Origin: an uncultured Gammaproteobacteria bacterium
Lineage (GTDB): Bacteria > Patescibacteriota > Patescibacteriia > 2-12-FULL-60-25
Reading direction: 5' to 3'
Length of the DNA stretch: 64,000 nucleotides
Assembly (NCBI GenBank): GCA_964551765.1
Contig: CAZKEE010000001.1
Span: 33,458-97,457 of the forward strand
Position 1 is the stretch's first letter. The number at the start of each line of letters is the position of its first letter. The notes beneath the pieces are model-generated. The model worked only from the letters and a program-made list of their open reading frames with translations, searched no databases and was not told where the DNA came from. Made by a program: the position numbers and the translations under genes. Below, piece after piece: positions 2,009 to 48,668 of this stretch.

Positions 2009-2010
2009 GT

Positions 2011-2610: not shown

Positions 2611-2645
2611 TTAATTAGACAAAAAAAGCTAACATAACCCTCAGT

Positions 2646-3044
2646 ATGCCCAACCCCCGCCCCGTACACTTCGAGATACACGCCGCCGATCTGGAACGCT
2701 GCAAGAAGTTCTATGCCGACGCCTTCGGCTGGACCTATCAAAGCTGGAAAGGCGAAGGCTTCGAATACACCATCGTCATGACCGGCACCAAGGAGGAGCT
2801 CGGCATCAATGGCGGCATGGTCAAACGCATGGGCCCGCCGCCGGCCGAGGATGCGCCCGTCATGGGCTATGTGAACGTCATCGGCGTGGACAATATCGAC
2901 ACCTACATCGCCAAGGTGGAGGCGGCAGGCGGCAAGGTCGCGCTTCCCAAGTTCCATACCGATAAGGTCGGTACCATGGCCTACTATAAGGACACCGAGG
3001 GCAATATCTTCGGCATGATACAGCCCGAGATGGCCCCGATGTAG
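2646..3044 (+). CDS. VOC/glyoxalase-bleomycin resistance family protein
   Basis: 132 aa. HFEIHAADLERCKKFYADAFGW is typical of the VOC fold N-terminus. Host-like GC. Confidence 0.75.
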   Translation: MPNPRPVHFEIHAADLERCKKFYADAFGWTYQSWKGEGFEYTIVMTGTKEELGINGGMVKRMGPPPAEDAPVMGYVNVIGVDNIDTYIAKVEAAGGKVALPKFHTDKVGTMAYYKDTEGNIFGMIQPEMAPM

Positions 3045-3137
3045 GCTTGACTTTCGCCTGAAAACCCCTAAGATACGCCTCCGCTCCGTGCTCTGCGGGG
3101 CGGTTTCGTACTCTACAACCCACAAGGACGGTATCTC

Positions 3138-9040: not shown

Positions 9041-10318
9041 ATGCCTACCCCTAAAAAGGCCAAGATCGTCAAAAAGACCACCTCCCGCACCATGCCAAAA
9101 CCCAAGCAGGCCCCCAAGAAGTTCCAGGCGAACAAGGGCAAAAAGCCGCAACCGCAGAAAAAGCAAGGGAAAGCGCAAGGCAAAGGTCCGGTAAAACCCG
9201 TCAAACAAGGTCCATACGTCAAAACCCCGGCCCCCTCGGCCGAGATGTTGGATAAGCTGTTCGAGAAGGCCCGCACGCGCGGCTTCATGACCGAGAACGA
9301 GGTCTTGTACGCGTTTGGCGAGGTGGAGGACTATATCCCGACCTATGAGGCCTTCGTGGACCGCTTGGACGCCGCCGGCATCGGCATCGTAGAGATGAAG
9401 GAAGGTCTCTTGGGCCGCCAAAAGGAACGCGCCGAGGCCATGGAGGCCTTGCACAGCGCCGATGACAAGCGCGGCAAGGTGGACCCCTTCGACCTCACGG
9501 CTGATTCCATACAGATGTACTTGCGCGAGATCGGCAAGATCCCGCTCTTGACGGCGGAAGAGGAGATCGCGCTCGCCAAACGCAAGGAGAAAGGGGACAA
9601 GGAGGCGGACAAAAAGCTCATCGAGGCGAACTTGCGCCTCGTCGTGTCCATCGCCAAGAAGTTCATGGGCAAGTCGCTCTCGCTCTTGGACCTCATCCAA
9701 GAGGGGAATATCGGCCTGTTCCGCGCCGTGAAGAAGTTCGAGTACCGCAAGGGCTATAAGTTCTCGACCTATGCCACCTGGTGGATACGCCAGGCCATCA
9801 CGCGCGCGCTCGCCGACCAAAGCCGCACCATCCGCATCCCGGTGCACATGGTCGAGACCATCAACAAGTTCCAACAGATCGAACGCCAGCTCATCCAAGA
9901 CCTTGGCCGCGAACCGTTGCCCGAGGAGATCGCCGCCGAGATGGGCGAAGAGGTGGAGAAGGTCCGCCACATCATCAAGATCTCGCAAGACACCGTGTCG
10001 CTCGAGACCAGCGTGGGCGAGGATGACGAGGACTCGACGCTCGAGGACTTCATCGAGGACGTCAAGAACGTCACGCCGGACCGCGCCGCCGCGCTCCAGC
10101 TCCTCAAGGACTATGTCGGCGACATCATCAAGGACCTCTCGCCCCGCGAGCAAAAGATCCTCGAGATGCGCTTCGGCCTCACCGACGGCGTGAGCCACAC
10201 GCTCGAAGAGGTGGGCAAGGAGTTCGACGTCACGCGCGAGCGCATCCGACAGATCGAGGCCAAATCCATCGAACGCATACAGCAACACCCGCTCATCAAG
10301 AAATTGGTGGACTACTAG
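9041..10318 (+). CDS. rpoD: RNA polymerase primary sigma factor (sigma-70), Lys-rich N-terminal extension
   Basis: Regions 2-4 conserved ([33 protein letters not shown], ...). Canonical dnaG-rpoD arrangement. Confidence 0.9.
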
Positions 10319-10346
10319 ACGCGTTTTGCCTTGACGCATGCCGACG

Positions 10347-10378
10347 AAAGAGCTATCCCTAGGGATAGCTCTTTCTTG
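10347..10378 (+). terminator. Rho-independent terminator after rpoD
   Basis: Perfect palindrome agagctatccctagggatagctct followed by a T-rich tract. Confidence 0.65.
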
Positions 10379-10407
10379 GTCTTGCCTGGAACCGGAACCA
10401 ATGGAGG

Positions 10408-10989
10408 TTGGTCATGCGCAAAGTCGCCATTGCGAGGCATAGCAAGACGGCATGGAACGCCGCTTGCAAGATCATCGGTCAAGAAGACATCCCCCTCATC
10501 GCGGAAGGACGCATACAGTCCGCCGCCTTGGGACGGACGCTTCAGGGCTCCCCAGAGGTGCGGATCGAACATATCGTGACATCCGACCTGTCGAGAGCAG
10601 CTGAAACATCGTGCACCGTGGCGCAGGCCCTGGGCCTGTCGCGTGCGCGCATCCGCAAGGACGCGCGATTCAGGGAAGCGAACCTCGGACGCCTGCAAGG
10701 GAAGACGGCGGCCGAGATCGCGAGTACCCATGGTCAGGGCATCCTGCGACCGCCTTTCGATTTCACGCCCTTCGGCGGGGAAACGCATGAGGAGGTCGTC
10801 GAACGCATGGTCTCCGGCATGCACGATGTCGCGAGGCTTTCCGACCCGTCCGGGACGATCGCGACCGTCCTGGTCGTCAGCCACTCCTGGGCCATCGAGG
10901 CCTATCTCCGGCATCTCCTGGGAGAACGCGTCCAGCTCGGCAATGCCGAGTGGCGCATCCTGACCCTGCAGGACCCGCCGCCGCCCTAG
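10408..10989 (+). CDS. Histidine phosphatase family protein (phosphoglycerate mutase-like)
   Basis: RHSKTAWN catalytic His motif near the N-terminus. C-terminal VVSHSWAIEAY. Confidence 0.7.
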   Translation: MVMRKVAIARHSKTAWNAACKIIGQEDIPLIAEGRIQSAALGRTLQGSPEVRIEHIVTSDLSRAAETSCTVAQALGLSRARIRKDARFREANLGRLQGKTAAEIASTHGQGILRPPFDFTPFGGETHEEVVERMVSGMHDVARLSDPSGTIATVLVVSHSWAIEAYLRHLLGERVQLGNAEWRILTLQDPPPP

Positions 10990-11009: not shown

Positions 11010-11114
11010 AGCCAAGAAACACCCTTGCCAAGTCATCGATGACTTGGTAACTTACCGCTCGCCTCACAGGAGGCGAATATTCCGAGGTAGCTCAGCGGTA
11101 GAGCAGAGGACTGT

Positions 11115-11672
11115 GAACGCGTTTATCAGGGATTCGTAGAAAACTCTATGAAGAAAGATAAACGGACCTATGCCGAGCGTGCCGATTATCTCAAGAAGGC
11201 GGTCGTCAAAAGGCGGAAGAAGGTACGAGAGATGGCCATCGCATACAAAGGAGGTGTCTGCAGCATATGCGGATACGACCGATGCATGGGGGCCCTTGAG
11301 TTCCATCATCCCGACCCTTCGCAAAAGGATTTCAGCATCTCGATGGACGGACTGACGCGGTCATGGGACCGGGTCAAGAAGGAGATCGAGAAATGCGTCC
11401 TCATTTGCGCGAACTGCCATCGCGAGATACATGCCGGCATGACGCAGCTTCCGACGGTAACGTCGGATTGAAAATCGAGGTGAATTGCTGGAAGCCTACA
11501 GTCATCGATCGGATGACTACGGTGATCAGCAGCCAAGCCCTGGCATGGCCAGGGAAGGTTCAGAGACTATCCCGTACGGGAGTACATCGACGAAAGTCGG
11601 TGGAAGCGCCTCGCTCCGCCTAAGGCGGATGAAGATATAGTCCACCCCGTGCGGAAACGCATGGACAATGTG
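11115..11672 (+). mobile_element. Group I intron (about 558 nt) in the tRNA anticodon loop carrying an HNH homing endonuclease ORF
   Basis: After the ORF, TTCAGAGACTA (11559-11569) and GATGAAGATATAGTCC (11628-11643) match conserved P7/J6-7 and P7-P9.0 strands of group I ribozymes. Both candidate 3' splice sites end on G (11670/11672); the preferred 5' splice is after exon position 35 (11114), the alternative after U33 (11112). Candidate IGS ACAGTC at 11498-11503 would pair with exon GACTGT. Confidence 0.75.
11148..11471 (+). CDS. HNH homing endonuclease encoded within the group I intron
   Basis: 107 aa with CSICGY...LEFHHPDPS...CANCHREIH (HNH / zinc-finger motif). Confidence 0.85.
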   Translation: MKKDKRTYAERADYLKKAVVKRRKKVREMAIAYKGGVCSICGYDRCMGALEFHHPDPSQKDFSISMDGLTRSWDRVKKEIEKCVLICANCHREIHAGMTQLPTVTSD

Positions 11673-11720
11673 TAATCCTTTGGTCGTGGGTTCGATCCCC
11701 ACCCTCGGAGCCATGTATAG

Positions 11721-16069: not shown

Positions 16070-16546
16070 ATGATACGAAAAACACTGTTCGCCTCCGTCA
16101 GCGTCCTCGCCCTGCTCGGCGCGGGATGCGCCAAACCCGCCACGCCCCCACCGTCGGCGGCGCAAGGAGAGGTCCCGGGCGTCACGGACGCGGACAAGAC
16201 CGTCGAGGTCACCTGGCGGCAGCCGCAAGCCTGCCCGCAATATGGCGCGCCGAACAATTGCTACAACCCCGAAGGCAAATGCGGGGGATATGACAAGTGG
16301 GCCTCGACCTGCGCGACCTTCTTGTGGAAGATCAATCCCTGTCCCGTCGGCAAAAAGGTCGTGTTCGTGAAGAACGCGTCCTGCAGCTATGACACGGACC
16401 CCTTCCCCTCGGGAGGCGCGTCGTCCACGGTGATGGCGGATGGCGAGGCGGCCATCGACTGCCGCTCCTTCGCGAAGCAGTTCAAGTCGGCATCGTGCAC
16501 GTGCAATAACGGCATCACCCTGCACGCCATCCTGCAGTGCAGATAA
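16070..16546 (+). CDS. Cys-rich secreted lipoprotein, unknown function
   Basis: Lipobox LLGAGC. 11 Cys in the mature part. Overlaps the msrA start by about 10 nt. Confidence 0.55.
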
Positions 16547-17058
16547 AAGACATCATGCATATGGAAAACACGACACAGACGGCCGTGCTCGCGGGAGGAT
16601 GCTTTTGGGGGATGGAAGAGCTCATCCGCAAATTGCCAGGCATCATCGACACCGAGGCGGGATATACGGGAGGCGAGAACGATGACCCGACCTATCAGAA
16701 CCATCCGGGCCATGCCGAGGCGCTCCAGATCAGGTTCGATCCGACCAAAACGACGTATCGCGACATCTTGGATTTCTTTTTCCGCATCCATGACCCCACG
16801 ACCTTGAACCGGCAGGGGAATGACATCGGTACCGCGTATCGCTCCGCCATCTTCTACGCGGACGAGACGCAAAAGAAGGAGGCGCAGGCGTTCATCGACC
16901 TCGTGAACAAGTCCGGACGTTGGTCCAGCCCGGTCGTGACCACGCTCGAGCCGCTCAAGACCTTCCATCCGGCCGAGAGCTATCATCAGGACTATCTGCA
17001 AAAAAATCCGGGCGGGTATACCTGTCATTACGTGCGATTGCCGACCTATCTGACATAA
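16537..17058 (+). CDS. msrA: Peptide-methionine (S)-S-oxide reductase
   Basis: [13 protein letters not shown] active-site motif. Start may be Met 16555 or 16561. Confidence 0.85.
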
Positions 17059-17498: not shown

Positions 17499-19721
17499 AT
17501 GAACGACATCTCCCTCATCGAAACACGCTACGCGACATCGAAAGACAGGCTCGTGGAGGCCCGAAAAAGGCTCGGTCGGCCTTTGACCTATGCCGAAAAG
17601 GTGCTCTGTTCGCATCTGGATGCGCCAAGCGCGCAGGAATGGGCGCCGGGATCGTCCCAGCTCGCCCTGCGTCCTGACCGCGTGGCCATGCAAGACGCCA
17701 CGGCCCAGATGGCCTTGCTCCAGTTCATGCAAAGCGGCCAAGCGCGTGTCGCCGTGCCGTCCACCGTGCATTGCGATCATCTCATCCGCGCGCAAAGCGG
17801 CGCCGCGCAAGACATCGAACGCGCCAAGACCGAGAACAAAGAGGTCTATGATTTCCTCCGTTCGGCCTCGGCAAAATATGGCATCGGCTTTTGGGAACCG
17901 GGCGCGGGCATCATCCATCAGGTCGTGCTGGAACGATATGCGTTCCCGGGAGGCCTCCTCATCGGCACGGATTCGCATACGCCGAACGGCGGAGGGCTCG
18001 GCATGCTTGCCATCGGCGTGGGAGGCGCGGATGCCGGCGAAGTGATGGCGGGCCTGCCCTGGGAAGTCCTGCACCCCAAGCTCATCGGCGTGAAGCTCAT
18101 CGGGCAACTTTCCGGCTGGACCTCGCCCAAGGACGTCATCCTGTACTTGTGCGGCTTGCTCACGACCAAGGGCGGCACGAACAAGATCATCGAATATTTC
18201 GGCCCCGGCGCCGCGACCATCAGCTGCACGGGCAAGGCGACCATCGCGAACATGGGCGCGGAGCTCGGCGCCACGGGCACGGTCTTTCCCTTTGATGCGC
18301 GCATGGCGGAGTATCTGCGCGCAATGGGCCGCGCGGATGTCGCCGCGCTTGCCGAGGCGCATGCGGCCGATCTCGCCGCGGACCCGGAGGTCGCGGCACA
18401 ACCCGATCGCTATTATGACGAGGTCATCGAGATAGATCTCTCAGCGCTCATGCCGCATGTGGTGGGCCCGCATTCGCCCGATGTGGCGCATCAGGTCACC
18501 CAGCTCGCGGATTTCGTGACCGCGCAGGGGCATCCGGCCGCGCTCACGAGCGCCCTCATCGGCAGCTGTACCAATTCTTCGTATGAGGACCTGAGCCGCG
18601 CGGCCGATGTCGCCAGGCAGGGGATAGCGGCCGGGCTCAAGGCGAAGGTCCCGTTCTTCGTGACGCCCGGGTCGACCCAGGTCTATGACACGGTGAAACG
18701 CGACGGTTTGCTCGACGTGTTCGAACAGATGGGCGGCATCGTGCTCGCCAATGCCTGTGGGCCCTGCATCGGCCAATGGAAACGCAGCGATATCCCGGAT
18801 GGACAGAAAAACTCCATCATCTCTTCGTTCAATCGCAATTTCCCCGGCCGCAATGATGGCAATGCTTTGACCTGCTCCTTCCTCGCGAGCCCGGAGGTGG
18901 TCACGGCCTATGCCTTCACCGGCCGTCTTGATAGCGATCCCATCGCGGCGCTCGGTTTGAAGCCCCCTGTCGGTGATACCCTTCCGACGAACGGCTTCGT
19001 GGCAAGCGATGCGGGGTTCCAGGCACCGGGCGAGGGCACGGATGTCGAGGTGCTCATCTCGCCCACGAGCGAACGTCTCCAGGTCTTGAGGCCTTTCGAT
19101 GCCTGGGACGGCAAGGACATGACGGACCTGCCCATCTTGCTCAAGACCAAGGGCAAGACCACGACGGACCACATCTCGCCGGCGGGCAAATGGCTGGCCT
19201 ATCGCGGACATCTCGACAAGATCAGCGACAACATGTTCTCGGGCGCCATCAATGCTTTCAGCGACAAGCCTGGCACGGGTCTCGACGTACGCACGGGCGA
19301 GCGCGAGGTCCCCATCTCGCAGATCGCGCGGCGATACAAGGCCGCGGGCCTGGGGTCCCTCGTCATCGGCGATGAGAACTATGGCGAAGGCTCGAGCCGC
19401 GAACATGCCGCCATGTCCCCGCGCTACTTGGGCGTGCGCGCCGTCCTTGCGCGCTCTTTCGCGCGCATCCATGAGACCAATCTCAAGAAGCAGGGCATCT
19501 TGCCTTTGACCTTCGCGGACGCGGGCGACTATGGCCTGTTCGGCGAGACCGACAAGGTCAGCGTCATCGGACTTTCGGAGCTCGCGCCAGGACGCGCGAT
19601 CGAAGTGCTTGTCCATAAGCCCGACGGCACGACGGCCACCATCAAGACGAAACACTCGCTCACCGCGCCGCAGATCGCCTGGTTCAAAGCCGGCTCGGCG
19701 CTTAATGCCTTGAAACCTTGA
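17499..19721 (+). CDS. acn: Aconitate hydratase
   Basis: 740 aa. Fe-S ligand region [19 protein letters not shown], and C-terminal swivel domain. Confidence 0.9.
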
Positions 19722-19722
19722 T

Positions 19723-20982
19723 ATGTACGAGAAATTGACCCCTCCGGCCGGCGACGCCATCACGCTCGCGGATGGAAAGCTCCGTGTCCCCGACCATCCC
19801 ATCATCCCTTTCGTGGAAGGCGATGGCACGGGGCCGGACATTTGGAAGGCCACGCGCCGCGTGCTCGATGCGGCGGTGGAAAAGACCTCGAACGGGGGAA
19901 AGAAGATCTCCTGGTTCGAGGTGTATGCAGGCGAAAAGGCGAACACGGTCTATGGCCCCAACACGTGGCTGCATGATGACACCATCAAGGCCTTCGAGAC
20001 CTATCGTGTGGGCATCAAGGGCCCGCTCACCACGCCCGTTGGCAAAGGCACGCGCAGCATCAATGTCGCCCTGCGCCAAAAGCTCGATCTCTATGCCTGC
20101 GTGCGGCCCGTGCGCTGGTATCAGGGCGTGCCCTCGCCCGTGAAGCGGCCGGACCTCGTGGACATGGTCATCTTCCGCGAGAACACCGAGGACGTGTATG
20201 CGGGCATCGAATGGGCCGCGGGCACGGAAGAAGCGAAAAAGCTCATGGCCTTTCTCCGCGATGAGCTCAAGGTCACCAAGGTGCGCTTTCCCGAGACGTC
20301 CGGCTTCGGCATCAAGCCCATCAGCAAAGAGGGGACGGAGCGCCTGTTGCGCTCGGCCATCGACTACGCGCTCGCACATGGCCGCAAGAGCCTCACCATC
20401 GTGCATAAAGGCAATATCATGAAGTTCACCGAAGGCGCATTCCGTGAATGGGGCTATGCCGTGGCGAAGAACGAGTACGGCGACAGGACGATCTCGTGGG
20501 AAGAGAGCGGCGGCGTGGTGCCCGAGGGCAAGCTCCTCATCAAGGACGCCATCGCGGACAATTTCCTCCAACAGATCCTGACGCGGCCCGCGGAATACGA
20601 TGTCATCGCCACCACGAACTTGAACGGCGACTATATCTCGGACGCGCTCGCGGCCGAGGTCGGCGGCTTGGGCATCGCGCCCGGCGGCAATATCAACTAT
20701 CTCACCGGCCATGCCGTGTTCGAGGCGACGCATGGCACGGCGCCCAAATACGCGGGCATGGACAAGGTGAACCCGGGTTCGCTCCTGCTCTCGGGCGTCA
20801 TGATGCTGCGCTACATGGACTGGGACGAGGCCGCGGACCGCATCGAGACCGCGCTCGCCTCGACCATCGCGGCAGGAGAGGTCACGTATGATCTGGCACG
20901 CCTCATGCGCGCCGAAGGACGTCAGGACGTCAAAGAGCTCTCCTGCTCGGCCTTCGCCGAGGCCATCGTGGGGCGGGTGTAA
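19723..20982 (+). CDS. icd: Isocitrate dehydrogenase (NADP-dependent, prokaryotic homodimeric type)
   Basis: 419 aa. Starts 2 nt after the aconitase stop. [13 protein letters not shown] isocitrate/isopropylmalate dehydrogenase signature. Confidence 0.9.
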
Positions 20983-33006: not shown

Positions 33007-33600
33007 ATGTCGAATGCCCCATTCCCCAGGCTGCAACGCCTGCTCATAGGCCTGACCGGGCTTTTGCTTGTCCCCGCGCTTGTCGTCCTGCTGTGGTCAC
33101 GGCCTATCAGGCCCTCGGCACAGCGTTCTGACGCGCCGCAGGCGCCGCCTGTCCAAGCAGATCCGGCCCATCCGCCCAAGACCGATGCGGAATGGAGGAA
33201 GGTCCTGACGCCCGAGCAATACCACATCATCCGCGAGCAGGGGACGGAACTTCCTTTTTCGAGCGCGCTCGACCACGAGACCCGCCCCGGCACCTATGTC
33301 AGCGCGGATTGCGGCATCCCGCTCTTCCGTTCCGAACAAAAATACGATTCCGGCACGGGATGGCCGAGCTTTTGGGCCCCCATCGATCCCAAGGTCGTGA
33401 CCTTGGTCGAAGATGACAGCCTGCCTTTCGAAAAACGCGTCGAGGTGGTGGATACGGCGTGCGCGGGCCACCTCGGCCATGTCTTCGATGATGGACCGCC
33501 GCCCACGGGCAAACGCTATTGCATGAACGGGCTTGCCTTGCGCTTCATCCCGGACCAGGCCGCGACCTCCACCCACAGCCCCTCCTTGCAGCGTCCCTGA
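33007..33600 (+). CDS. msrB: Peptide-methionine (R)-S-oxide reductase MsrB with N-terminal signal/TM anchor (extracytoplasmic)
   Basis: SelR signature CxxC...[13 protein letters not shown]...RYCMN after a hydrophobic leader and Pro-rich linker. Confidence 0.85.
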   Translation: MSNAPFPRLQRLLIGLTGLLLVPALVVLLWSRPIRPSAQRSDAPQAPPVQADPAHPPKTDAEWRKVLTPEQYHIIREQGTELPFSSALDHETRPGTYVSADCGIPLFRSEQKYDSGTGWPSFWAPIDPKVVTLVEDDSLPFEKRVEVVDTACAGHLGHVFDDGPPPTGKRYCMNGLALRFIPDQAATSTHSPSLQRP

Positions 33601-39852: not shown

Positions 39853-41088
39853 CTACAGAACGGCATGCTCGCCGGCAAGGCGGCCCGTGGCCCAGGAAGC
39901 TTGCAGATTGAAGCCGCCCGTGAAGCCGTCGATGTCGAGGATCTCTCCCGCGAAGAACAGGCCGGGGCATTTTTTCGATGCCATGCTCGACGGGTCCACC
40001 TCGGCGAGGTCTATGCCGCCCGCGGTCACGAACTCGTCCCCGGCCCCGCGCGCCACGGCTTGCAGCGGCACGCCCTTGAGCCATGCGGCGATGCGGGCCT
40101 GGTCCTTTTTCGAGAGCTCGGCCGCATGCCTCTCCGCAGGCACGTCATGCAATTGGCACACGATCTCGGCCAAGGACTTGGGCATGAGGGTCCCAAGCGC
40201 GTTCATCGCGCTTTTCTTCGCGTGCGATGCGCATGCGGCCGCGAGACGCGACATGAGCTCGTCCTGCGTCACATCGGGGAAGAGATCGATGGTGAAGTCG
40301 AGCGGGGTCTTGGCATCATAGGTCTCGAACGCGACCAGGGAAGACAAGGCGAACACGGCCGGCCCGCTCACGCCCTTATGCGTGAAGAGGAAAGGCCCCG
40401 TAAAGGCATAGGTCTTGTCACGTCGTGCCGTGAAGGTCGCTTTCTCGAAAGAGAGACCGGAGAGCGCCGCGGGCCAGGTCTCGCGCGTGAAAAAGGCGTT
40501 CAAGCTCGGCGCGAGCGTGGTGAGCGAATGACCAAGCGCGATGGCAAAGGCATAGCCGTCGCCGGTGGAACCGGTATGGCGATAGGCTTGGCCGCCGGTC
40601 GTGAGCACCACGCGGTCCAACAGGAGCGGTTCGTCCTTCCCTTTGACCGACACGGCAAAGCCGTCGCCGCGTTTTTCGATGCCCTGCACCTGTGCCTTGG
40701 TCCAGATATGGACATTCGAACGTGAAAACAATTTTTCGAAAGCCCCGACCACGTCACGCCCATCGTCCGAGACGGGGAAGACGCGCAGGTCTTCTTCGAC
40801 CTTGAGCGGCACGCCATGCGCCTCGAACCAGTCATACACGGCCTGCGGAGGGAAATGATGCATGGCCTTGGCCAGGAACTTGCCGCCGCGCGGATATTTG
40901 GTGAGCACGGTGCGGATATCCGTGATGCCGGTCGTGACATTGCAGCGCCCGCCGCCGGAGATGATGACCTTTTTGCCCAGGGCGTCGTTCCGTTCGAGCA
41001 CAAAGACCTCCGTCCCCGGAACGTGTTCGAGCACGGTCGCGGCGCTCATGAGCCCAGCCGCGCCGCCGCCCACGATGGCGATCTTCAT
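39853..41088 (-). CDS. NAD(P)/FAD-dependent oxidoreductase, HI0933/BaiN family
   Basis: MKIAIVGGGAAGLM dinucleotide-binding motif and C-terminal GEILDIDGFTGGFNLQ. The tool ORF to 41703 is an upstream artefact. Confidence 0.8.
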   Translation of the reverse strand: MKIAIVGGGAAGLMSAATVLEHVPGTEVFVLERNDALGKKVIISGGGRCNVTTGITDIRTVLTKYPRGGKFLAKAMHHFPPQAVYDWFEAHGVPLKVEEDLRVFPVSDDGRDVVGAFEKLFSRSNVHIWTKAQVQGIEKRGDGFAVSVKGKDEPLLLDRVVLTTGGQAYRHTGSTGDGYAFAIALGHSLTTLAPSLNAFFTRETWPAALSGLSFEKATFTARRDKTYAFTGPFLFTHKGVSGPAVFALSSLVAFETYDAKTPLDFTIDLFPDVTQDELMSRLAAACASHAKKSAMNALGTLMPKSLAEIVCQLHDVPAERHAAELSKKDQARIAAWLKGVPLQAVARGAGDEFVTAGGIDLAEVDPSSMASKKCPGLFFAGEILDIDGFTGGFNLQASWATGRLAGEHAVL

Positions 41089-41184
41089 GACACGGTTTGT
41101 ACCATATCCACGGGGTTTTGACAGGCGGTTCCCGGTCTTTCTCCGCTCTGGCATCATGGTCCCATCATTCCTCATCCTTTTTCT

Positions 41185-41553
41185 ATGGACGAAAACCCAC
41201 AGGCCGTCGAGCTCCACGTGTGCCGCGGCATGAACTCTTGTGCCGGCAAGGGCAAAGACGGTTCCGGTGCGATGGCCGGCGGCGGTTCTTGCGCCACCGC
41301 GTCCACCCATCATTGTGCCGGCAACAATGAATGCAAAGGCCAGGGCGGTTGCGGATATGGCTCTGCCGAGGTGCAGGAACATCCGGGCGAGAATGCGTGC
41401 AAAGGCCAGGGTGGGTGCGCCGTGCCCATCACGACCAATCTGAGCACCGATGGCACGAACAAGGACAAACCGGTGTGGGACCTGGCGCGCAAGTTGTTCG
41501 AGGCCCGCATGGCGAAGCAGGGCAAGGACGTGGCCCCAGCGCCAAAGGCATAA
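41185..41553 (+). CDS. Cys-rich bufferin-like RiPP precursor candidate (8 Cys; duplicated CKGQGGC cores), no signal peptide
   Basis: 122 aa. Cx5C/Cx7C units; [15 protein letters not shown] resembles DUF2282 cores (GHSCAG / AGKNDC). In-frame stop at 41119 and no alternative start upstream. Stop is 1 nt before the MNIO start. Confidence 0.6.
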
Positions 41554-41554
41554 C

Positions 41555-42394
41555 ATGATCGCGCCACGGCTCGGCTTGCCGAACCTCGGCATCGGGGTCG
41601 GTTTGCGCATGCCGCATGTCCCGTATGTGCTCGAACATCGGCCGAAGGTCGAGTGGTTCGAGATCATCTCGGAGAACTTCATGGGCTCGCATGGACGGCC
41701 CATGAGCCAGCTCGACGAGGTCGCGGAGCGCTATCCCATCGTCTTGCATGGCGTCTCCCTCTCCATCGGGAGCACGGATGCCGTGGACCGCGGCTATCTC
41801 GCGGCGCTCAAGTCGCTCGCCACGCGCATGCGAACGCCGTGGGTCTCCGATCATCTCTGCTGGACGGGCGTGAACGGTCTCAATACGCATGATCTCTTGC
41901 CGCTCCCGTTCACTGAGGCGTCTTTGCGACATGTCATCGCGCGCGTGCGGATGGTGCAAGAGGTCCTCGAGCGGCCCCTCGTCCTCGAAAACCCCAGCAG
42001 CTATGTCGCCTTCGCGTCTTCGAGCATGGGCGAGGCCAAGTTCCTCTCGCGCCTCACCGAGGCCACGGGCTGCGGTCTGCTCCTCGACGTGAACAACGTG
42101 TATGTGACGAGCCGCAATCTTGGGCTCGACCCGCTCGCGTATCTCGACGCCTTGCCGCATGACCGCGTCGTGCAATACCACGTGGCGGGCCATACCGATG
42201 CCGGCACCCACCTCATCGATACCCACGATGCGCCGGTCTGTGATGCGGTGTGGGACCTCTATGGAAAAGCGCTCGCGCTCACCGGTCCAGTATCGACCCT
42301 TCTCGAATGGGATGCGAAGCTTCCCACCTTCCCCGAGCTTGTCGCCGAGGCCGACAAGGCGCGTCAGTATCACCGACATCCTGCCTATGCCTGA
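41555..42394 (+). CDS. DUF692 multinuclear non-heme iron oxidative enzyme (MNIO; MbnB/BufB-like)
   Basis: [56 protein letters not shown] and HVAGH family signatures. Confidence 0.8.
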
Positions 42395-42989
42395 TCTGCA
42401 TGCCGTGCAAACCTGGATGTTCGACGCGATCACCCGTCCGCGCACCATCCTGCCCGATGAGATAGGGGAGCGTCTTCGCGGGTCGCCGACCCTTCCGCCA
42501 GCACGCGGCCTGGCCATCTATCAAGATGGATATGTCTCGCGTCTCGTCGAGTGCCTGGAAAAACAATTCCGCTTCCTGCACATGACGCTCGGCGATGAGG
42601 TCTTCGCGGCCTTCGCGCGCGACTATATTGCCGCCCATCCGCCGTCAAGCCATACCCTGGCCGATCTCGGCGCGCGTTTTCCCGACCATCTGCGGGAGAC
42701 GCGTCCGCCGAAAGAGGGGACATCACCCGATTGGCGCGACTTCCTCATCGACCTCGCCCGCTATGAACTGGCCTGGTCCGAGGTCTTTGATGCGCCGCAG
42801 GCGCAGGCCCTGCGAAAGCTCGCCTGCGACTATCCGGTGCATGCCTATGTGGACGCCTTGCGCCGTGACGCGACGACCGAGATGCCGGCCGCCCGACCGA
42901 CCTTGCTCGTCCTGGACCGCCCCGACCTGACCGTGCGCGTTCGCGAGCTGGAAGAACACGTGATACCATCGCGACACATCATATTATGA
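42387..42989 (+). CDS. DUF2063 partner protein (MbnC/BufC-like), short form
   Basis: 8-nt overlap with the MNIO gene. N-terminal [15 protein letters not shown] is typical of DUF2063. 200 aa, so likely the N-terminal domain only. Confidence 0.6.
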
Positions 42990-43375
42990 CCGACACACCC
43001 ATGAAGAAAGATGAAGAGCTCTCTCCCGAGCTCTATCGCGTGGCCCGCGCAAAGGGCACGGAACCGGCCTTCACCGGCGCTTATGTGAACGAACATGCGA
43101 AGGGGATGTATCACTGCGCGGTCTGCGGGGCCGAGCTGTTCTCGTCCGACACCAAGTTCGATTCCGGCACGGGATGGCCGAGCTTCACCGAGCCCGCCAA
43201 TCTCGCCAATGTCGAGCTCCATGACGACGACAGCCTGGGCATGCGGCGCACCGAGGTGACCTGCAAAAAATGCGGCGCGCATCTGGGACATGTCTTCGAT
43301 GACGGCCCGAGCGACAAGGGCGGCAAGCGCTATTGCATCAATTCCGTGTGTCTTGCGCTGAAAAAGCAAGAATAG
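42986..43375 (+). CDS. msrB: Peptide-methionine (R)-S-oxide reductase MsrB (cytoplasmic), translationally coupled to the MNIO operon
   Basis: ATGA overlap with DUF2063 stop. HCAVCG...[16 protein letters not shown]...RYCIN SelR motifs. Confidence 0.85.
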
Positions 43376-43413
43376 ATTGTCCCGGAAGGTCTTGCATGCT
43401 ACGGTGAACATCC

Positions 43414-43980
43414 ATGGAGATCACGGATTCCCATCTCATCAAGGCGCATCTCGCGGGGGAAAAGGGCGCGTTCGACATCCTCGTCGCGCGGTATCTGCGT
43501 GCCGTGCATGCCGTGGCATTCCACTATGCCAAGAACCGCGCGGATGCCGAGGACATCGCGCAAGAGACCTTTCTCAAGGTATGGCGCCATCTGCAGCGCT
43601 TTGACACGGACAAGAACTTCAAGCCGTGGGTCTTGCAGATCACCAAGAACCAGGCCTTGGACCATCTCAAAAAGAAACGTCCGATGACGTTCTCGTCCAT
43701 CGAACAAGAGGACGTGGACCTGCTCGACCTCATCCCGGACACCTCCCCTTTGCCGGACGCATTGGCAAGACGCGCCGAAGAGATCGGCGGCCTGCGCGAG
43801 ACCCTGGACGGGCTGCCGGCGTCTGACAGAAAATTGCTTTTTTTCCGCTATATGAAGGGATTTTCCTTCAAAGAGATCGCGGAAGAGCTTGGTGAGGTCC
43901 TGGATACCGTCAAAAGCCGCCATCGCCGCCTCTTGCTGAAGCTCCGCAAAGAACTGCTCAATGCGGCCCCGTGGTCCTGA
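43414..43980 (+). CDS. ECF-type RNA polymerase sigma factor
   Basis: Sigma-70 region 2 (DAEDIAQETFLKVWRH) and region 4 (LLFFRYMKGFSFKEIAEELG). Confidence 0.85.
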   Translation: MEITDSHLIKAHLAGEKGAFDILVARYLRAVHAVAFHYAKNRADAEDIAQETFLKVWRHLQRFDTDKNFKPWVLQITKNQALDHLKKKRPMTFSSIEQEDVDLLDLIPDTSPLPDALARRAEEIGGLRETLDGLPASDRKLLFFRYMKGFSFKEIAEELGEVLDTVKSRHRRLLLKLRKELLNAAPWS

Positions 43981-44405
43981 AAAACACGCACCGAAACGGA
44001 CCCGACCCTCGTAATGAGGGTATGGTGAGTTTGCCCGATACTGCGCCCCGCGAAGGCCTGCTCCAAGAGATCTTGGCCGCGGTGGAACGTCAAGAACAGA
44101 CCCGCGCCGCCCGAAGGCGTTTTTGGGGGTTCCTGTTCCTGTGCGGCGCATCGCTTTGGGCGGTCATCTCGATGTCCATGGCCTTGGCCGCCGACCTGCG
44201 GCATTCCGGCTTTTTGGCCTTTGCCTCTTTGCTCTTCACGAACGGCGGTGACGTGCTCGCCAATTGGCGGGAGTTCTCTTATTCCTTGCTCGAGTCCTTG
44301 CCGGTCACCGAGCTCATCCTGACCTTGGGTCTCGGTCTCGCGGGCATGTATGCCTCGCGCTCGCTCCTGACCCGTCATGAACGCCTATGGACCCCCAACG
44401 CATAG
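43971..44405 (+). CDS. Putative membrane anti-sigma factor
   Basis: Overlaps the sigma gene stop. Cytoplasmic N-segment then TM helices. GTG start at 43971 or ATG at 44022. Confidence 0.45.
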   Translation: MVLKNTHRNGPDPRNEGMVSLPDTAPREGLLQEILAAVERQEQTRAARRRFWGFLFLCGASLWAVISMSMALAADLRHSGFLAFASLLFTNGGDVLANWREFSYSLLESLPVTELILTLGLGLAGMYASRSLLTRHERLWTPNA

Positions 44406-44836
44406 ATCGCCTCAAGACCGTGATGCTCACCTTGGCCGGCGTCATCGCCGTGCTTGCCGTGTTCCAGACCGGCGTCTTCGTCGGCTATCGCAAGGCGGCG
44501 TATTCCTGCCATTGGGGCGAACATCGTCGCCCGTTCTTCGAGCCGCGCATGGGGTTCATGGGTCCGCCTCCCGGTCCTCCCGGCGACGGTCCGGGGCGCG
44601 ACGCCTACATGGGCGGGCATGGCCTCGAAGGCACCGTCACCAAGATCGACGGAGATTCCCTCATCGTCACGGACCTCGACGGCGATGAGCGCACCGTCGT
44701 CATGGCGACGGGCACGGCGGTCAAACCCTCGGACAGCGACATGAGCACGGGCAGCCACGTGGTCATCCTGGGCGCGCCGGACGATGTCGGGAACATCGAG
44801 GCCCGCTTCATACGCATCACCCCATCGACACATTGA
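44387..44836 (+). CDS. DUF5666-like membrane-anchored beta-domain protein, paralogue 1
   Basis: N-terminal TM, Gly/Pro linker, GTVTKIDGDSLIVTDLDGDERTVVMATGTAV beta-rich domain. Overlaps the anti-sigma gene. Confidence 0.5.
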   Translation: MDPQRIDRLKTVMLTLAGVIAVLAVFQTGVFVGYRKAAYSCHWGEHRRPFFEPRMGFMGPPPGPPGDGPGRDAYMGGHGLEGTVTKIDGDSLIVTDLDGDERTVVMATGTAVKPSDSDMSTGSHVVILGAPDDVGNIEARFIRITPSTH

Positions 44837-44839
44837 CCT

Positions 44840-46750
44840 ATGCACCTTCCACGCATGTTCACGACCAAGCGCCTGATCGCCGTCCTCCTCTTGGGCGGCG
44901 CCGTGGCGGGCGTCCTCGTCTACAGGAACTCGACCGCCGTCACGACCAAGCCGACCTATGTGACCGCGCAGCCCTCGCGCGGCCTGCTCATCGTGTCCTT
45001 GAACGGCGCGGGCCAAGTGGCGTCGGAGAGCCGCGTCGACATCAAGCCCAAGGTCTCGGGCGACCTGCTCGCCATGAAGGTCGCGCCGGGGCAGCTCGTC
45101 AAGAAAGGCGATGTCATCGCTGAGATAGACAAGACGGCCGCGCTCAAGACCGTGCGCGATGCCGAGATCTCCCTCGCCTCGGCCAAGCTCTCCTTGTCCA
45201 AGCTCAAGCAGCCTCCCACCACGTCCAGCCTCATCGCGGCAAAGAACGCCGTGAGCGCGGCCGAACGAAATCTCCAGAACGCGCAGGCCACGGCGGCCGC
45301 GAACCTGCAGCAGGCCCAGGACCAAGTGGACGCGGCCGTGCGCAATACCCAGCTCTCTTCCGACGGCGTGACGCCGCAAGTGGTGCGGAACGTCTATGAC
45401 AACAGCGCGTCGGTCTATATCGCCGCCATGCAGACCACGGCGAACGCGGTGCATGACACGGACGGCATGGACTATAATCCGGACCTGTACTCGACCTTGG
45501 ACCCCACGCGCCGCGCCACCTTCGTGAGCGCATACCAAGCGGCCATCGCCGCGCGCGACGAGGCGATCAAACTGACCACGGCCTTGGCCATACAGAACGA
45601 GAAGATCGAGAACCTCGATGCCGCCAAGGACAAGGTCTCCTTCGCCATGGAAAAGACCATGGTGCTTTTGGGCGCGGCGGCCGATGCCTTGCAGACGACC
45701 ATCGCCTCGACCGGGCTTTCGCAGAGCGCCCTGGACCAGTTGAAGAGCGCGATACAGAGCGATCGCACCAATGTCGCGTCCAAGCAGGCGTCCATCCTGT
45801 CGCAGCAGCAGACCATCATCCAGGCCAAGAACGCCTATGCGGATTCCGGCGCCCAGTTGGCGCAGGCACAATCGACCTTGCAGCGCTTGCAGCAGGGCGG
45901 CGCGGACAAGGACGTCAAAGACGCGCAGGAGCGTTTGAACGAGGCCACGCAACAATTGAAAGACCTGCAAGCGGGACCCATGAGCATAGACGTCTCGCTC
46001 TCACAGAACACCATAGACAGCCGCGCGGCCACGCTTTCGGACGCCTTGGCCGCGCTCGCGGATTACACGGTGTATGCGCCGTTCGACGGCACCATCGCCG
46101 TGGCCGCTCCCTTGCCGGGAGACCCGATGGGCCCGAGCACCGTCGTCGCGACCATCGTGGGCAAGCAGCAGCTCGCGCAGATCACCTTGAACGAGGTGGA
46201 CGCGGCCAAGGTCAAGGTCGGTCAAAAGGCGACCGTGGCCTTCGATGCCATCCCTGACCTGACCATCAGCGGCGTGGTGCAATCCATCGATACCTTGGGC
46301 ACGGTCTCGCAGGGCGTCGTGAGCTATGCCGTCAAGATCAGCTTCGACACCCAGGACGAACGCGTGCGGCCCGGCATGAGCGTGAGCGCATCCATCATCA
46401 CGGATTCCAAAGCGGATGCGCTGACCGTGCCTTCGAGCGCGGTCAAGGCCGCGGGCGCGGGATCGTATGTCGACGTGCTCGACACGGTGCCCGCCGATGC
46501 GACCGGACCCGTCGAAGGGACCCCGCGCCGCGTCACGGTGCAGACCGGCCTCGCGAACGACAGCCAAACGGAGATCACGAACGGCCTCACGGGCACCGAG
46601 AACGTGGTCGTGCAGACCATACAACCCAAGACCGGCACGACCGCGACGACCCAGAACACCAATGCCTTACGCGCCCTCACGGGCGGCGGGGGAGGGGGTG
46701 GAGGAGGGAACTTCCGTTTCGGCGGGGGAGGCGCGGCGGGCGGACGCTGA
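44840..46750 (+). CDS. HlyD/MacA-family periplasmic adaptor (membrane fusion protein) with poly-Gly C-terminal tail
   Basis: N-terminal TM, long coiled-coil, beta-barrel/lipoyl-like C-domain. Ends in GGGGGGGGGNFRFGGGGAAGGR. Confidence 0.75.
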   Translation: MHLPRMFTTKRLIAVLLLGGAVAGVLVYRNSTAVTTKPTYVTAQPSRGLLIVSLNGAGQVASESRVDIKPKVSGDLLAMKVAPGQLVKKGDVIAEIDKTAALKTVRDAEISLASAKLSLSKLKQPPTTSSLIAAKNAVSAAERNLQNAQATAAANLQQAQDQVDAAVRNTQLSSDGVTPQVVRNVYDNSASVYIAAMQTTANAVHDTDGMDYNPDLYSTLDPTRRATFVSAYQAAIAARDEAIKLTTALAIQNEKIENLDAAKDKVSFAMEKTMVLLGAAADALQTTIASTGLSQSALDQLKSAIQSDRTNVASKQASILSQQQTIIQAKNAYADSGAQLAQAQSTLQRLQQGGADKDVKDAQERLNEATQQLKDLQAGPMSIDVSLSQNTIDSRAATLSDALAALADYTVYAPFDGTIAVAAPLPGDPMGPSTVVATIVGKQQLAQITLNEVDAAKVKVGQKATVAFDAIPDLTISGVVQSIDTLGTVSQGVVSYAVKISFDTQDERVRPGMSVSASIITDSKADALTVPSSAVKAAGAGSYVDVLDTVPADATGPVEGTPRRVTVQTGLANDSQTEITNGLTGTENVVVQTIQPKTGTTATTQNTNALRALTGGGGGGGGGNFRFGGGGAAGGR

Positions 46751-46756
46751 TCGCCT

Positions 46757-47458
46757 ATGGTGATGATAGAGGTGGACAATGTCACCAAGTCGTACACGAC
46801 GGGCGACGGCACGGAGTTCCAGGCCCTGAAGGGGATCTCGTTGAAAGTGGCCAAAGGAGATTTCGTGGCCATCATGGGGCCTTCGGGTTCCGGCAAATCC
46901 ACCCTCATGCATATCCTCGGCGCGCTCGACACGCCCACCACGGGCCGCTATTTCCTCGACGGCAAGGATGTCTCCCGGATGCGCGAGGACGAGCTCGCCG
47001 TGGTCCGCAGGGAGCGGATCGGGTACGTGTTCCAGTCCTTCAACCTCTTGCCGCGCACCACGGTACTGCGCAATGTCTCTTTGCCGCTCATGTACAAGGG
47101 CGTGCCGCGACATGAACGCATGGAGCGTGCCATCAAGGCCTTGCACGCCGCGGGCATGGAAGAGGCGAAGTTCTTCAACCTCTCGAACCAGCTCTCCGGC
47201 GGGCAGATGCAGCGCGTGGCCATTGCCCGCGCGCTCGTGAACGATCCGGCCATCATCCTGGCGGACGAACCGACCGGCAATCTCGACACCAAGACCGGCG
47301 AGTTCATCATGGGCACGTTCCAACGCCTCAATGACGAAGGCCATACCATCGTGCTCATCACGCATGAACGCGACGTGGCCGAACATGCCAAACGCATCTT
47401 CGTGCTGCGCGACGGCGTGGTGCAGCAGGAGGTACAAGGGAAATATGAACGTCACTGA
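46757..47458 (+). CDS. ABC transporter ATP-binding protein, MacB/LolD type
   Basis: GPSGSGKST Walker A, LSGGQMQRVAIARAL signature, and ILADEPTGNLD. Confidence 0.85.
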   Translation: MVMIEVDNVTKSYTTGDGTEFQALKGISLKVAKGDFVAIMGPSGSGKSTLMHILGALDTPTTGRYFLDGKDVSRMREDELAVVRRERIGYVFQSFNLLPRTTVLRNVSLPLMYKGVPRHERMERAIKALHAAGMEEAKFFNLSNQLSGGQMQRVAIARALVNDPAIILADEPTGNLDTKTGEFIMGTFQRLNDEGHTIVLITHERDVAEHAKRIFVLRDGVVQQEVQGKYERH

Positions 47459-48668
47459 TCTCGCGGAAGAGACCTATTTGGCGCTGTCCTCGAACAAGGT
47501 GCGCTCGGCCTTGACCATGCTCGGCATCGTCATCGGCATCGCGTCCGTCATCGCCATGGTGGCCATCGGCCAGGGCGCGCAGGCCGGCATACAGGCGAGC
47601 ATACAATCCGTCGGGTCCAACTTGGTCCTGGTCCTGCCGGGCGCGCAACGCGGCGTGGGCGTGCAGGTCAGCGCGGGACGCGGGTCGGCACAGACCCTGA
47701 CCCAGGGCGACGCGGACGCCATCGCGTCCTCGGTCCAGTCGCTCGCCGGCGTCGCACCCGAGCTCACGCGCCGCTATCAAGTGACGGCCAAGGGGACCAA
47801 TACCAATACCTCGGTCATCGGCACGACGCCGGACTATCCGGCGGTGCGCAATGTGCAGATCGACCAAGGGCGTTTCATCACGGACCAGGACCTGCGCTCG
47901 CTCGGCCGCGTGGCCGTGATCGGGCCCACGGCGCGCGATGACCTTTTTGGCGCGGACGCCCAGGCCATCGGCCAGATCATCAAGGTGAACAATATCGAGC
48001 TCCGCGTGGTCGGCATCACGGTGGCCAAGGGCGGCTCCGGCTTCAACAATCCGGATGATGCCATCTATATCCCGCTCGCCAGCGCGCAAAAGCTCTTGGC
48101 CGGGTCCTCCTTCGTCTCGACCATCAGCGTGGCCGCCTCGAGCCAGGACGCGATGTCCGCGGTGCAGGCCCAGGTGACGGCGCTCTTGCTCGCGCGCCAT
48201 AACATCTCGGACCCGGCCATGGCAGATTTCAACGTGCTCAACCAGGCGGACATCGTGGCCACGGCCTCGAGCGTCGCGAACACCTTCACCGTCCTGCTCG
48301 CCTCCATCGCCGGCATCTCCTTGCTCGTCGGCGGCATCGGCATCATGAACATGATGCTGACCTCGGTCACCGAGCGCACACGCGAGATCGGTCTGCGCAA
48401 GGCCATCGGCGCGCAACGCGAGGACATCACTTTGCAGTTCCTGACCGAGGCCGTGGCCCTGACCTTTTTAGGCGGGCTCATCGGGGTGATGCTCGGCCTG
48501 GGCGTCTCTTGGGGCGTGACGAAGTTCGCAGGCATCGCGAGCCAGGTCTCCCTCGGGTCCATCGCCCTGGCCTTCGGCGTCTCGGCCGGCATCGGCGTGC
48601 TGTTCGGGTATTATCCCGCCCAACGCGCGGCACGGCTCAACCCCATCGAGGCTTTGCGCTATGAATAG
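47445..48668 (+). CDS. ABC transporter permease, FtsX/MacB type
   Basis: N-terminal TM, large periplasmic domain, and three C-terminal TM helices of the FtsX fold. 14-nt overlap with the ATPase gene. Confidence 0.8.
   Translation: MNVTDLAEETYLALSSNKVRSALTMLGIVIGIASVIAMVAIGQGAQAGIQASIQSVGSNLVLVLPGAQRGVGVQVSAGRGSAQTLTQGDADAIASSVQSLAGVAPELTRRYQVTAKGTNTNTSVIGTTPDYPAVRNVQIDQGRFITDQDLRSLGRVAVIGPTARDDLFGADAQAIGQIIKVNNIELRVVGITVAKGGSGFNNPDDAIYIPLASAQKLLAGSSFVSTISVAASSQDAMSAVQAQVTALLLARHNISDPAMADFNVLNQADIVATASSVANTFTVLLASIAGISLLVGGIGIMNMMLTSVTERTREIGLRKAIGAQREDITLQFLTEAVALTFLGGLIGVMLGLGVSWGVTKFAGIASQVSLGSIALAFGVSAGIGVLFGYYPAQRAARLNPIEALRYE

Follow-up and report, generated by a model that had tools for sequence, protein, structure and literature searches.

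A methionine sulfoxide reductase gene within a bufferin-like MNIO gene cluster, upstream of an ECF sigma factor gene, in two related bacterial lineages

Analysis of a 64,000-nucleotide stretch of DNA from an uncultured bacterium (contig CAZKEE010000001.1 of assembly GCA_964551765.1, positions 33,458 to 97,457; hereafter the window) identified msrB, a gene for methionine sulfoxide reductase B (42986..43375, + strand), as the fourth gene of a cluster for a bufferin-like peptide. The first-pass annotation of the window had described msrB as embedded in the MNIO cluster and physically this is so, since it directly follows the gene for the DUF2063 partner protein. The cassette comprises genes for a Buf2-like precursor that lacks a signal peptide, a BufB-type MNIO (DUF692) maturase, a short DUF2063 protein and MsrB, and it lies directly upstream of what appears to be a resident module of extracytoplasmic function (ECF) sigma factor, anti-sigma candidate and MacB-type efflux genes in two related lineages, which are probably Patescibacteria. 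The explanation that is favoured, at slightly better than an even chance, is that this is one stress-induced operon from which a metal-binding peptide with modified Cys residues would be made together with a general MsrB for the repair of oxidised methionine.

The arrangement of the genes is consistent with a single transcription unit. The genes of the cluster all lie on the + strand and either overlap or stand a short distance apart, in the order precursor, MNIO, short DUF2063, msrB, ECF sigma factor, anti-sigma candidate, a 149-residue protein, HlyD/YknX-type protein, ABC ATPase, MacB permease and a DUF5666 protein. The four junctions that separate the precursor gene from the sigma gene are, in turn, a 1-nt gap, an 8-nt overlap, a 4-nt overlap and a 38-nt gap. 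No terminator-like site was predicted on the + strand between the start of the precursor gene and the end of the sigma gene (41185-43980), nor in the equivalent region of the sister lineage (L088, described below), where a strong 13-bp hairpin just upstream of the precursor gene marks the 5' boundary. The presumed operon promoter lies in the intergenic region 41080..41184 (+ strand), between a divergent HI0933-like flavoprotein gene and the precursor gene. Within this region, at 41116-41157, is the motif TTTTGACA-N25-TGGCATCAT, which recurs with the same spacing upstream of the sister precursor gene (about 1207-1248); it occurs once in the window and was matched in six of 100 shuffles. Given that its spacing is unfit for a sigma-70 promoter, the motif may be an ECF promoter or an operator. 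A search for Rfam elements in the operon found none.

The product of msrB, 129 residues from ATG 42986 or 124 residues from ATG 43001, is predicted to be a cytoplasmic, zinc-type enzyme, and by homology it is a bona fide canonical MsrB with predicted reductase activity. It matches Pfam SelR (PF01641) with 171.9 bits (cutoff 24.9) over profile positions 1-115 of 116 and TIGR00357 with 170.3 bits (cutoff 113), and its matches in the PDB are solved MsrBs (E 7e-43 to 1e-26, the best being 2k8d at 7e-43). The zinc-binding pairs CAVCG and CKKCG and the catalytic Cys of GKRYCINS align with the motifs of 2k8d and human MsrB3, and the usual recycling Cys (GCGWPSF) is replaced by Thr (GTGWPSF), as it is in the Patescibacteria orthologues. 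The protein shares 75-84% identity with MsrBs that, where the source is named, come from Patescibacteria, and in three Patescibacteria genomes that hold such relatives msrB directly follows msrA. A specialised subfamily of cassette MsrBs was considered and rejected, as the window copy and the sister cassette copy do not cluster together: they are no closer to each other than to the msrA-linked MsrBs. The cassette MsrB therefore looks, from its sequence, like a general, unspecialised enzyme of the housekeeping type.

It had been claimed from the window alone that the msrB start codon overlaps the DUF2063 stop and that this implies obligatory co-translation. The junction sequence, CATATTATGACC at 42980-42991, reads with ATG 42986-42988 overlapping the stop TGA 42987-42989, and the 4-nt ATGA overlap is thus confirmed if ATG 42986 is the start. 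However, obligatory co-translation does not follow, for three reasons: first, the in-frame ATG at 43001 (Met6) is an equally plausible start, from which the spacer would be 11 nt with no overlap, and the sequence that begins at Met6, MKKDEELS, is the exact N-terminus of several close MsrB homologues. Second, the junction in the sister locus is TAG-TAAACCT-ATG, in which a 7-nt spacer separates the DUF2063 stop from the msrB start, so the stop/start overlap of a translationally coupled pair is not conserved and the ATGA overlap is itself incidental. Third, overlaps are routine in this cluster, being present at three of eight junctions in the public gene calls for the same DNA (8 nt between MNIO and DUF2063, and 19 nt at a junction further downstream), and ATGA is the commonest overlap type in bacterial operons; the overlap is therefore not beyond chance. 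The idea that the overlap is a recombination scar, left when a horizontal insertion recently truncated both DUF2063 and the precursor, was rejected: DUF2063 is equally short in the sister lineage and the precursor begins at the same point there, the GC content of the cassette equals that of its flanks, and all its genes are under purifying selection. An internal promoter within DUF2063 is improbable, since the sigma-70-like matches (window 42960-42987, L088 3004-3031) are no more frequent than chance predicts and their positions in the two lineages are not homologous.

The sister lineage is represented by two ENA contigs from one organism (L088 and L089), which carry the closest homologue of the window sigma factor. 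The order of genes there is a cyt-b5 protein, precursor (121 residues), MNIO, DUF2063 (190 residues), MsrB (125 residues), sigma factor, anti-sigma candidate, a homologue of the 149-residue protein and HlyD. Between window and sister the proteins are 71% (precursor), 67% (MNIO), 48% (DUF2063), 78% (MsrB) and 61% (sigma factor) identical. All open reading frames (ORFs) are intact, and third codon positions are 0.40-0.58 identical as against 0.59-0.89 for positions 1 and 2; the cassette genes are under purifying selection and their synonymous sites are saturated. Given that the order persists despite saturated third positions, the linkage has been maintained, and it is unchanged even though the upstream neighbour has turned over completely, being a cyt-b5 gene in the sister lineage and a flavoprotein gene in the window. 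The conservation of msrB downstream of DUF2063 in related genomes, which the first-pass annotation had proposed as a check, is thus seen in the one sister lineage found.

The remaining cassette genes point to a bufferin-like pathway. The MNIO (279 residues, 41555..42394, + strand), which begins 1 nt after the precursor stop, scores 362.4 bits against NF050167 (MNIO_BufB, cutoff 310), and so qualifies as a BufB equivalog, and 362.7 bits against PF05114. The precursor (122 residues, 41185..41553, + strand) is Cys-rich and Buf2-like, with about eight residues ahead of the core; its match to the BufA2 model NF050166 is weak (19.9 bits, E 6e-4, below the cutoff of 60), and it is 40-58% identical to precursors upstream of the 80 closest MNIO genes, aligns at 49-58% identity with Cys-rich precursors that precede BufB-type MNIOs, and is 71% identical to the sister precursor. 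It has no Sec-type signal peptide. A longer ORF is excluded by a stop codon 63 nt upstream, and the sister precursor starts at the same place, whereas most homologues carry 25-50-residue signal peptides of the RRDF type. Most Buf2-like precursors beside the closest MNIOs (L001-L080) have twin-arginine-looking signals (NRRDFxKL...), resembling those of the Tat pathway, where the literature describes Sec signals.

The DUF2063 partner (200 residues, 42387..42989, + strand) matches PF09836 with 73.8 bits and its gene overlaps the MNIO stop by 8 nt (ATGCCTGA). In comparison with homologues of 250-310 residues it is shorter by about 27 residues internally and about 55 at the C-terminus, has no PF22106 match, and is missing about half of the NGO1945_C domain, which resembles a RiPP (ribosomally synthesised and post-translationally modified peptide) recognition element (RRE). 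A search of its sequence profile against the PDB gave no match and only fold comparison succeeded: the AlphaFold2 model (predicted local distance difference test score, pLDDT, 85.5) matches TglI (8hci), NGO1945 (3dee, template modelling score 0.52) and MbnC (7dz9) in Foldseek, and the short form is confidently predicted to fold like these proteins. Short forms are also encoded in the sister lineage (2484-3056 of L088) and in a further relative from a metagenome, L097 (198 residues, 6001-6597), and an orphan copy is present on an 819-nt contig (L099). Because the sister lineage has both the short DUF2063 and the leaderless precursor, these are lineage traits and not a fresh truncation. The association of a short DUF2063 with signal-less precursors fits a published correlation between the type of partner protein and the presence of a signal peptide (PMC12452194).

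Three further relatives have signal-less precursors, namely L049 (Streptomyces), L063 (Solirubrobacterales) and L097. Like the window, these clusters have a precursor of the subfamily VELHVC..MAGxGxCAT..GQGGCGY, an MNIO gene followed by DUF2063, and an accessory gene directly after DUF2063; in L097, as in the window, DUF2063 is of the short form and the fourth gene overlaps it by 4 nt. They differ from the window in that the fourth gene encodes a ferritin-like PF12902 protein (L049 7929-9284; L063 7622-9016; L097 6594-7769), in that the precursors have hydrophilic leaders of 35-87 residues and, for L049 and L063, in that DUF2063 is of full length; an ECF-like sigma gene stands upstream in L049. 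The slot after DUF2063 is thus a variable accessory position, which is filled by DoxX in Buf1 clusters described in the literature, by a ferritin-like gene in these signal-less relatives and by msrB in two lineages. The L097 cluster is on JGI contig Ga0606676_0000025 (151 kb) and is flanked (388-3430, 9062-10651) by phage-like Pfam matches to HMUDK_hel, ThyX and Metallophos; the contig might be a large phage or mobile element that carries a bufferin-like cluster. In four other loci (L013, L053, L064, L068) a region with the same ELFTIPLY-type motif, putatively ferritin-like as judged by eye, is joined in front of the Cys-rich precursor domain in proteins of 540-715 residues encoded upstream of MNIO.

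Given that a short DUF2063 (200 and 190 residues against 250-310), a near-leaderless precursor and msrB coincide in two lineages, it is conceivable that MsrB is a structural or catalytic accessory to maturation, which would make up for the lost half of the RRE-like C-terminal domain and for the lack of a leader or signal peptide; it might, for instance, bind the precursor through its Met-containing sequence or deliver reducing equivalents to the MNIO. This is very improbable: L097 pairs its short DUF2063 with a ferritin-like gene and no msrB, the short DUF2063 is predicted to fold by itself like TglI, NGO1945 and MbnC, the MsrB sequence is typical of its family, and such a role is without precedent.

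The first-pass annotation had also drawn attention to two methionines in or near the precursor core (RGMNSC and AMAGGG), which are present as M16 and M30 and are conserved in the sister lineage. In an alignment of precursors (A4), the column of M30 (41272-41274) is an invariant Cys (xCAGxGxCAT) in nine signal-bearing precursors and Met (xMAGxGxCAT) in all five signal-less precursors, i.e. those of the window, L088, L049, L063 and L097, which also have two insertions in common. At the M16 column of the same alignment, Met is confined to the precursors of the two msrB-linked lineages and all others have Leu; a Met at this position (HVCKGMNSC) is also found in many acidobacterial Buf2 precursors with no msrB nearby.

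These residues raise the possibility, suggested in the first-pass annotation, that MsrB is dedicated to keeping the methionines of the precursor or mature peptide reduced, chiefly M30 and perhaps M16, in which case these would be functional, for instance as thioether ligands of Cu(I), and exposed to oxidants from an O2-activating iron enzyme. The conservation of both residues between the two msrB-linked lineages, the restriction of Met16 to them within the alignment, the exchange of Cys for Met at position 30, which fits the replacement of a ligand, and the cytoplasmic location of both precursor and MsrB are all in keeping with such a role, and there is a precedent in the repair of Met ligands of a copper protein, CusF, by MsrPQ (PMC9302797). 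Nevertheless, dedicated repair is rather unlikely: L049, L063 and L097 have Met30 with no msrB within reach, the acidobacterial precursors have Met at position 16 with none nearby, MsrB has not diverged from its housekeeping orthologues, and it handles only the R epimer while the cassette holds no MsrA. Because the MsrB sequence is unspecialised and msrB is absent from relatives that share M30, a general role is preferred to a dedicated one. A bolder form of the same idea, in which the product is a cytoplasmic, leaderless bufferin-like metallophore with a conserved Cys ligand replaced by M30 and msrB encodes the dedicated maintenance enzyme that keeps its thioether ligand or ligands reduced, is doubtful; if true, an Msr would here for the first time form an integral part of a RiPP gene cluster.

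Downstream of msrB, the cluster continues with genes that also occur apart from the cassette. The ECF-type sigma-70 factor (188 residues, 43414..43980, + strand) begins 38 nt after msrB, matches TIGR02937 with 115.8 bits as well as Sigma70_r2 and r4_2, and has closest homologues at 53-61% identity, among which are those named as Patescibacteria. It is followed by a putative membrane anti-sigma factor (44025..44405, + strand; 126 residues in the public gene call, or 144 from a possible GTG start at 43971). Its anti-sigma role is inferred from its position: L088-L096 keep a gene of this kind immediately behind the sigma gene, and the protein, which has hydrophobic segments and no Pfam or NCBIfam match, is 39% identical to its L089 counterpart. 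No HxxxCxxC motif was seen when the translation was checked by eye, and the protein does not conform to the cytoplasmic zinc-associated anti-sigma (ZAS) type. An ECF sigma factor and a positional anti-sigma candidate are thus encoded beside the MNIO genes. Next is a conserved protein of unknown function (149 residues, 44387..44836, + strand) with an N-terminal hydrophobic segment, which is 42% identical to the L089 copy and has homologues after the anti-sigma gene in L089, L090, L091, L094 and L096. The efflux genes, all on the + strand, encode an HlyD/YknX-type membrane-fusion protein (44855..46750; PF13437, PF16576 and YknX-type Pfam matches), the ABC transporter ATPase of a MacB-type system (46757..47458; PF00005, 120 bits) and a MacB-type permease with MacB_PCD and FtsX domains (47445..48668, the start being that of the public gene call; PF12704, 168 bits; PF02687, 76 bits).

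In the other Patescibacteria sigma orthologues (L090-L096 and the P0160 contig) neither MNIO nor msrB is beside the sigma gene, and the longer of these contigs have, in order, sigma, anti-sigma, the unknown ORF, HlyD, ABC and MacB. Given that MNIO and msrB are both missing there, msrB goes with the MNIO cassette, which forms a unit placed before a resident sigma/efflux module.

The proposal is that stress induces the cluster as a whole, transcribed as a single unit. The MNIO and DUF2063 would convert Cys residues of the precursor into metal-binding heterocycles, as in bufferins, and MsrB would be an ordinary thioredoxin-dependent reductase of methionine-(R)-sulfoxide, made simultaneously and in the same compartment. 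It would there repair methionine oxidised by the oxidative, chlorine or copper stress that would induce the operon, and its substrates could include the proteins and peptide of the pathway itself, though not exclusively. The cluster would then gather into one operon what in Neisseria and Haemophilus is an ECF-sigma regulon, in which one sigma factor controls both an MNIO/DUF2063 operon and msrAB.

Several observations weigh against this proposal. The distribution of the linkage is narrow and may reflect a single origin. Among the 80 closest MNIO loci, which were drawn from GTDB species representatives with MNIOs of 57-66% identity and belong to Verrucomicrobiota, Planctomycetota, Acidobacteriota, Myxococcota and some Actinomycetota, almost all have precursor, MNIO and DUF2063 in that order; tblastn (E < 1e-5) found no MsrB homologue closer than about 6 kb in any of them, and an msrA, about 5 kb away, in one. 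On a broad scale, then, the msrB linkage is unusual, and in the three other signal-less relatives msrB is likewise absent and a ferritin-like gene takes its slot. Since both msrB lineages may descend from one insertion event, their conservation may amount to a single evolutionary observation. The sigma module occurs in relatives without the cassette, so its primary target may be the efflux genes. No ECF-type promoter was recognised in the operon, there being no known ECF promoter consensus for this clade, and the anti-sigma candidate, as a membrane protein with no recognisable ZAS motif, is unlike those of Neisseria and Haemophilus. Finally, the operon holds MsrB only, with a solitary msrA 26 kb distant, though chemical oxidation yields both sulfoxide epimers.

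The narrow distribution also bears on the possibility that the juxtaposition is neutral, i.e. that msrB left an msrA-msrB pairing by rearrangement in a compact genome and was kept in two lineages by inertia, with co-transcription being non-adaptive beyond the supply of a promoter. That msrB has moved follows from the pairing of its closest orthologues with msrA while the window msrA is solitary. The junction differs between the lineages (overlap against 7-nt spacer), and besides the absence of msrB from the 80 nearest loci, metagenome scans with the DUF2063 and precursor alignments found no further members of the clade. A word-indexed protein search for clade members missed even the DUF2063 of L088, so it was not exhaustive; an exhaustive HMMER search of 1.84 billion representative proteins gave about four above 45% identity to the window DUF2063, two of which are those of L097, with its ferritin-like fourth gene, and the orphan L099. 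Neutral juxtaposition is nevertheless unlikely for three reasons: first, the order has outlived both the turnover of the upstream neighbour and the saturation of synonymous sites. Second, regulons of three proteobacterial genera have independently arrived at the same functional pairing (PMC2893595, PMC7907618, PMC3511200). Third, the slot after DUF2063 in relatives holds redox or metal accessory genes, whether ferritin-like or, in Buf1-type clusters, DoxX.

The count of three Msr genes within 27 kb, as first reported for the window, is correct. The others are a solitary msrA (16537-17058; PMSR, 201 bits) and a second msrB (33007-33600; SelR, 148 bits), whose product is anchored in the membrane by a hydrophobic N-terminal segment, has neither of the CxxC zinc pairs and is 49% identical to the operon MsrB. 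As its gene has its own upstream terminator and sigma-70-like -10 box, it is an independent, probably extracytoplasmic, paralogue. The three genes are separate transcription units with unrelated genes between them, for example those for aconitase and isocitrate dehydrogenase, and do not form an island; no promoter motif shared with the operon was found upstream of msrA or the second msrB.

Elsewhere in the window, the aconitase and isocitrate dehydrogenase genes (17499-20982) are unexpected for the Patescibacteria host suggested by the closest MsrB and sigma homologues. A group I intron (RF00028, 70.2 bits, 11377-11664, + strand) lies inside an apparent split tRNA gene (11081-11716), of which the 5' half (about 11081-11117) has the acceptor TCCGAGG and the D-arm GCTCAGCGGTAGAGC, and the 3' half (about 11672-11716) the T-arm GTGGGTTCGATCCCCAC followed by CCTCGGAGCCA. 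The intron region also encodes an HNH-like motif, CANCHREIH. ARAGORN reported no tRNA in the window.

Bufferin-like MNIO operons occur very widely and have been linked to copper stress, and their Neisseria and Haemophilus homologues respond to H2O2 and HOCl. The joining of msrB to such an operon in two lineages is independent genomic support for the view that these peptides and the repair of methionine sulfoxide belong to one stress response, a link previously seen only as co-regulation in three proteobacterial genera. Given the Neisseria and Haemophilus sigmaE literature the locus is unsurprising, and it is a useful corroboration; being small and easy to express heterologously, it also offers a convenient test of the action of MsrB on the peptide. 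The signal-less subfamily, with its Cys-to-Met change in the core, shortened partner protein and variable fourth gene (MsrB or ferritin-like), spans probable Patescibacteria and Actinomycetota and has been little studied, and its product may act inside the cell.

The first-pass annotation stated that no Msr is part of characterised methanobactin or bufferin operons. This stands in so far as a literature search found no published description of an msr gene inside an MNIO gene cluster, and Msr is mentioned nowhere in the MNIO landscape paper or its supplements; it ignored, however, the known regulon link between ECF sigma factors, MNIO-DUF2063 operons and Msr. In N. meningitidis the sigmaE regulon consists of the rpoE operon NMB2140-2145 and msrA/msrB (PMC2893595), and the N. 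gonorrhoeae operon encodes DoxX (NGO1948), a periplasmic protein (NGO1947), DUF692 (NGO1946), DUF2063 (NGO1945) and the sigma factor (NGO1944) (PMC2954202). RpoE2 of H. influenzae, which is induced by HOCl and H2O2, controls msrAB, mtsZ and a DoxX/COG3220/DUF2063 cluster (PMC7907618). Two DUF2282-DUF692-DUF2063 operons of Caulobacter, now named bufferin operons (PMC11626156), are under the control of sigmaF together with CC2748, annotated as YedY (PMC3511200). MsrPQ of E. coli is induced under copper stress and repairs methionines that serve as ligands in the copper chaperone CusF (PMC9302797).

Comparison with the Neisseria system (NMB2140-2145, NGO1948-1943) shows in both cases an ECF sigma gene in an operon with DUF692, DUF2063 and a small precursor-like protein. 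The Neisseria sigma factor also drives Msr and its regulon is small and dedicated, whereas control by the sigma factor of the window is inferred. The two systems differ in that msrAB of Neisseria is unlinked and encodes a fused MsrA/MsrB, while the window has a stand-alone, cytoplasmic msrB in the operon; the Neisseria fusion protein is secreted, and it and the precursor-like protein are both extracytoplasmic. They differ also in the anti-sigma factor, which is of the cytoplasmic ZAS type in Neisseria and a membrane candidate with no recognisable ZAS motif here, and in that Neisseria has DoxX and a periplasmic precursor-like protein where the window has no DoxX and a precursor without a signal peptide. 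The H. influenzae system likewise ties an ECF sigma factor to both msr and an MNIO (COG3220)/DUF2063 cluster, control being shown there and gene adjacency being what is seen here. In that organism the sigma gene adjoins msrAB, the MNIO cluster is elsewhere and Msr is periplasmic, whereas all three are contiguous in the window, and the organism and the precursor type differ. The compartments match within each system: in the window the precursor is signal-less and MsrB cytoplasmic, and in H. influenzae the precursor-like protein and MsrAB are both extracytoplasmic.

The buf1 and buf2 operons of Caulobacter, under sigmaF-NrsF, have the order precursor, MNIO, DUF2063 found here, and the window MNIO passes the BufB model. 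YedY, the annotation of CC2748, is taken here to be MsrP, a periplasmic methionine sulfoxide reductase. The Caulobacter regulon thus holds ECF-controlled operons and an Msr, to which the adjacent ECF sigma factor and msrB of the window are analogous. It differs in its periplasmic bufferins with Sec signals, its full-length partner protein, its molybdenum-type, unlinked Msr and its anti-sigma factor NrsF (DUF1109). The CusSR-MsrPQ-CusF system of E. coli resembles what may hold for the window in that copper homeostasis is co-regulated with an Msr which keeps the methionines of a copper protein reduced, and differs in the MsrP family of its enzyme, its periplasmic location, the absence of a RiPP and control by a two-component system instead of an ECF sigma factor. 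In summary, the pairing of a bufferin-like MNIO operon with an ECF sigma factor and Msr is already established at the level of the regulon; what is new here is that this pairing is fused into one string of genes, with a cytoplasmic MsrB matched to a signal-less precursor.

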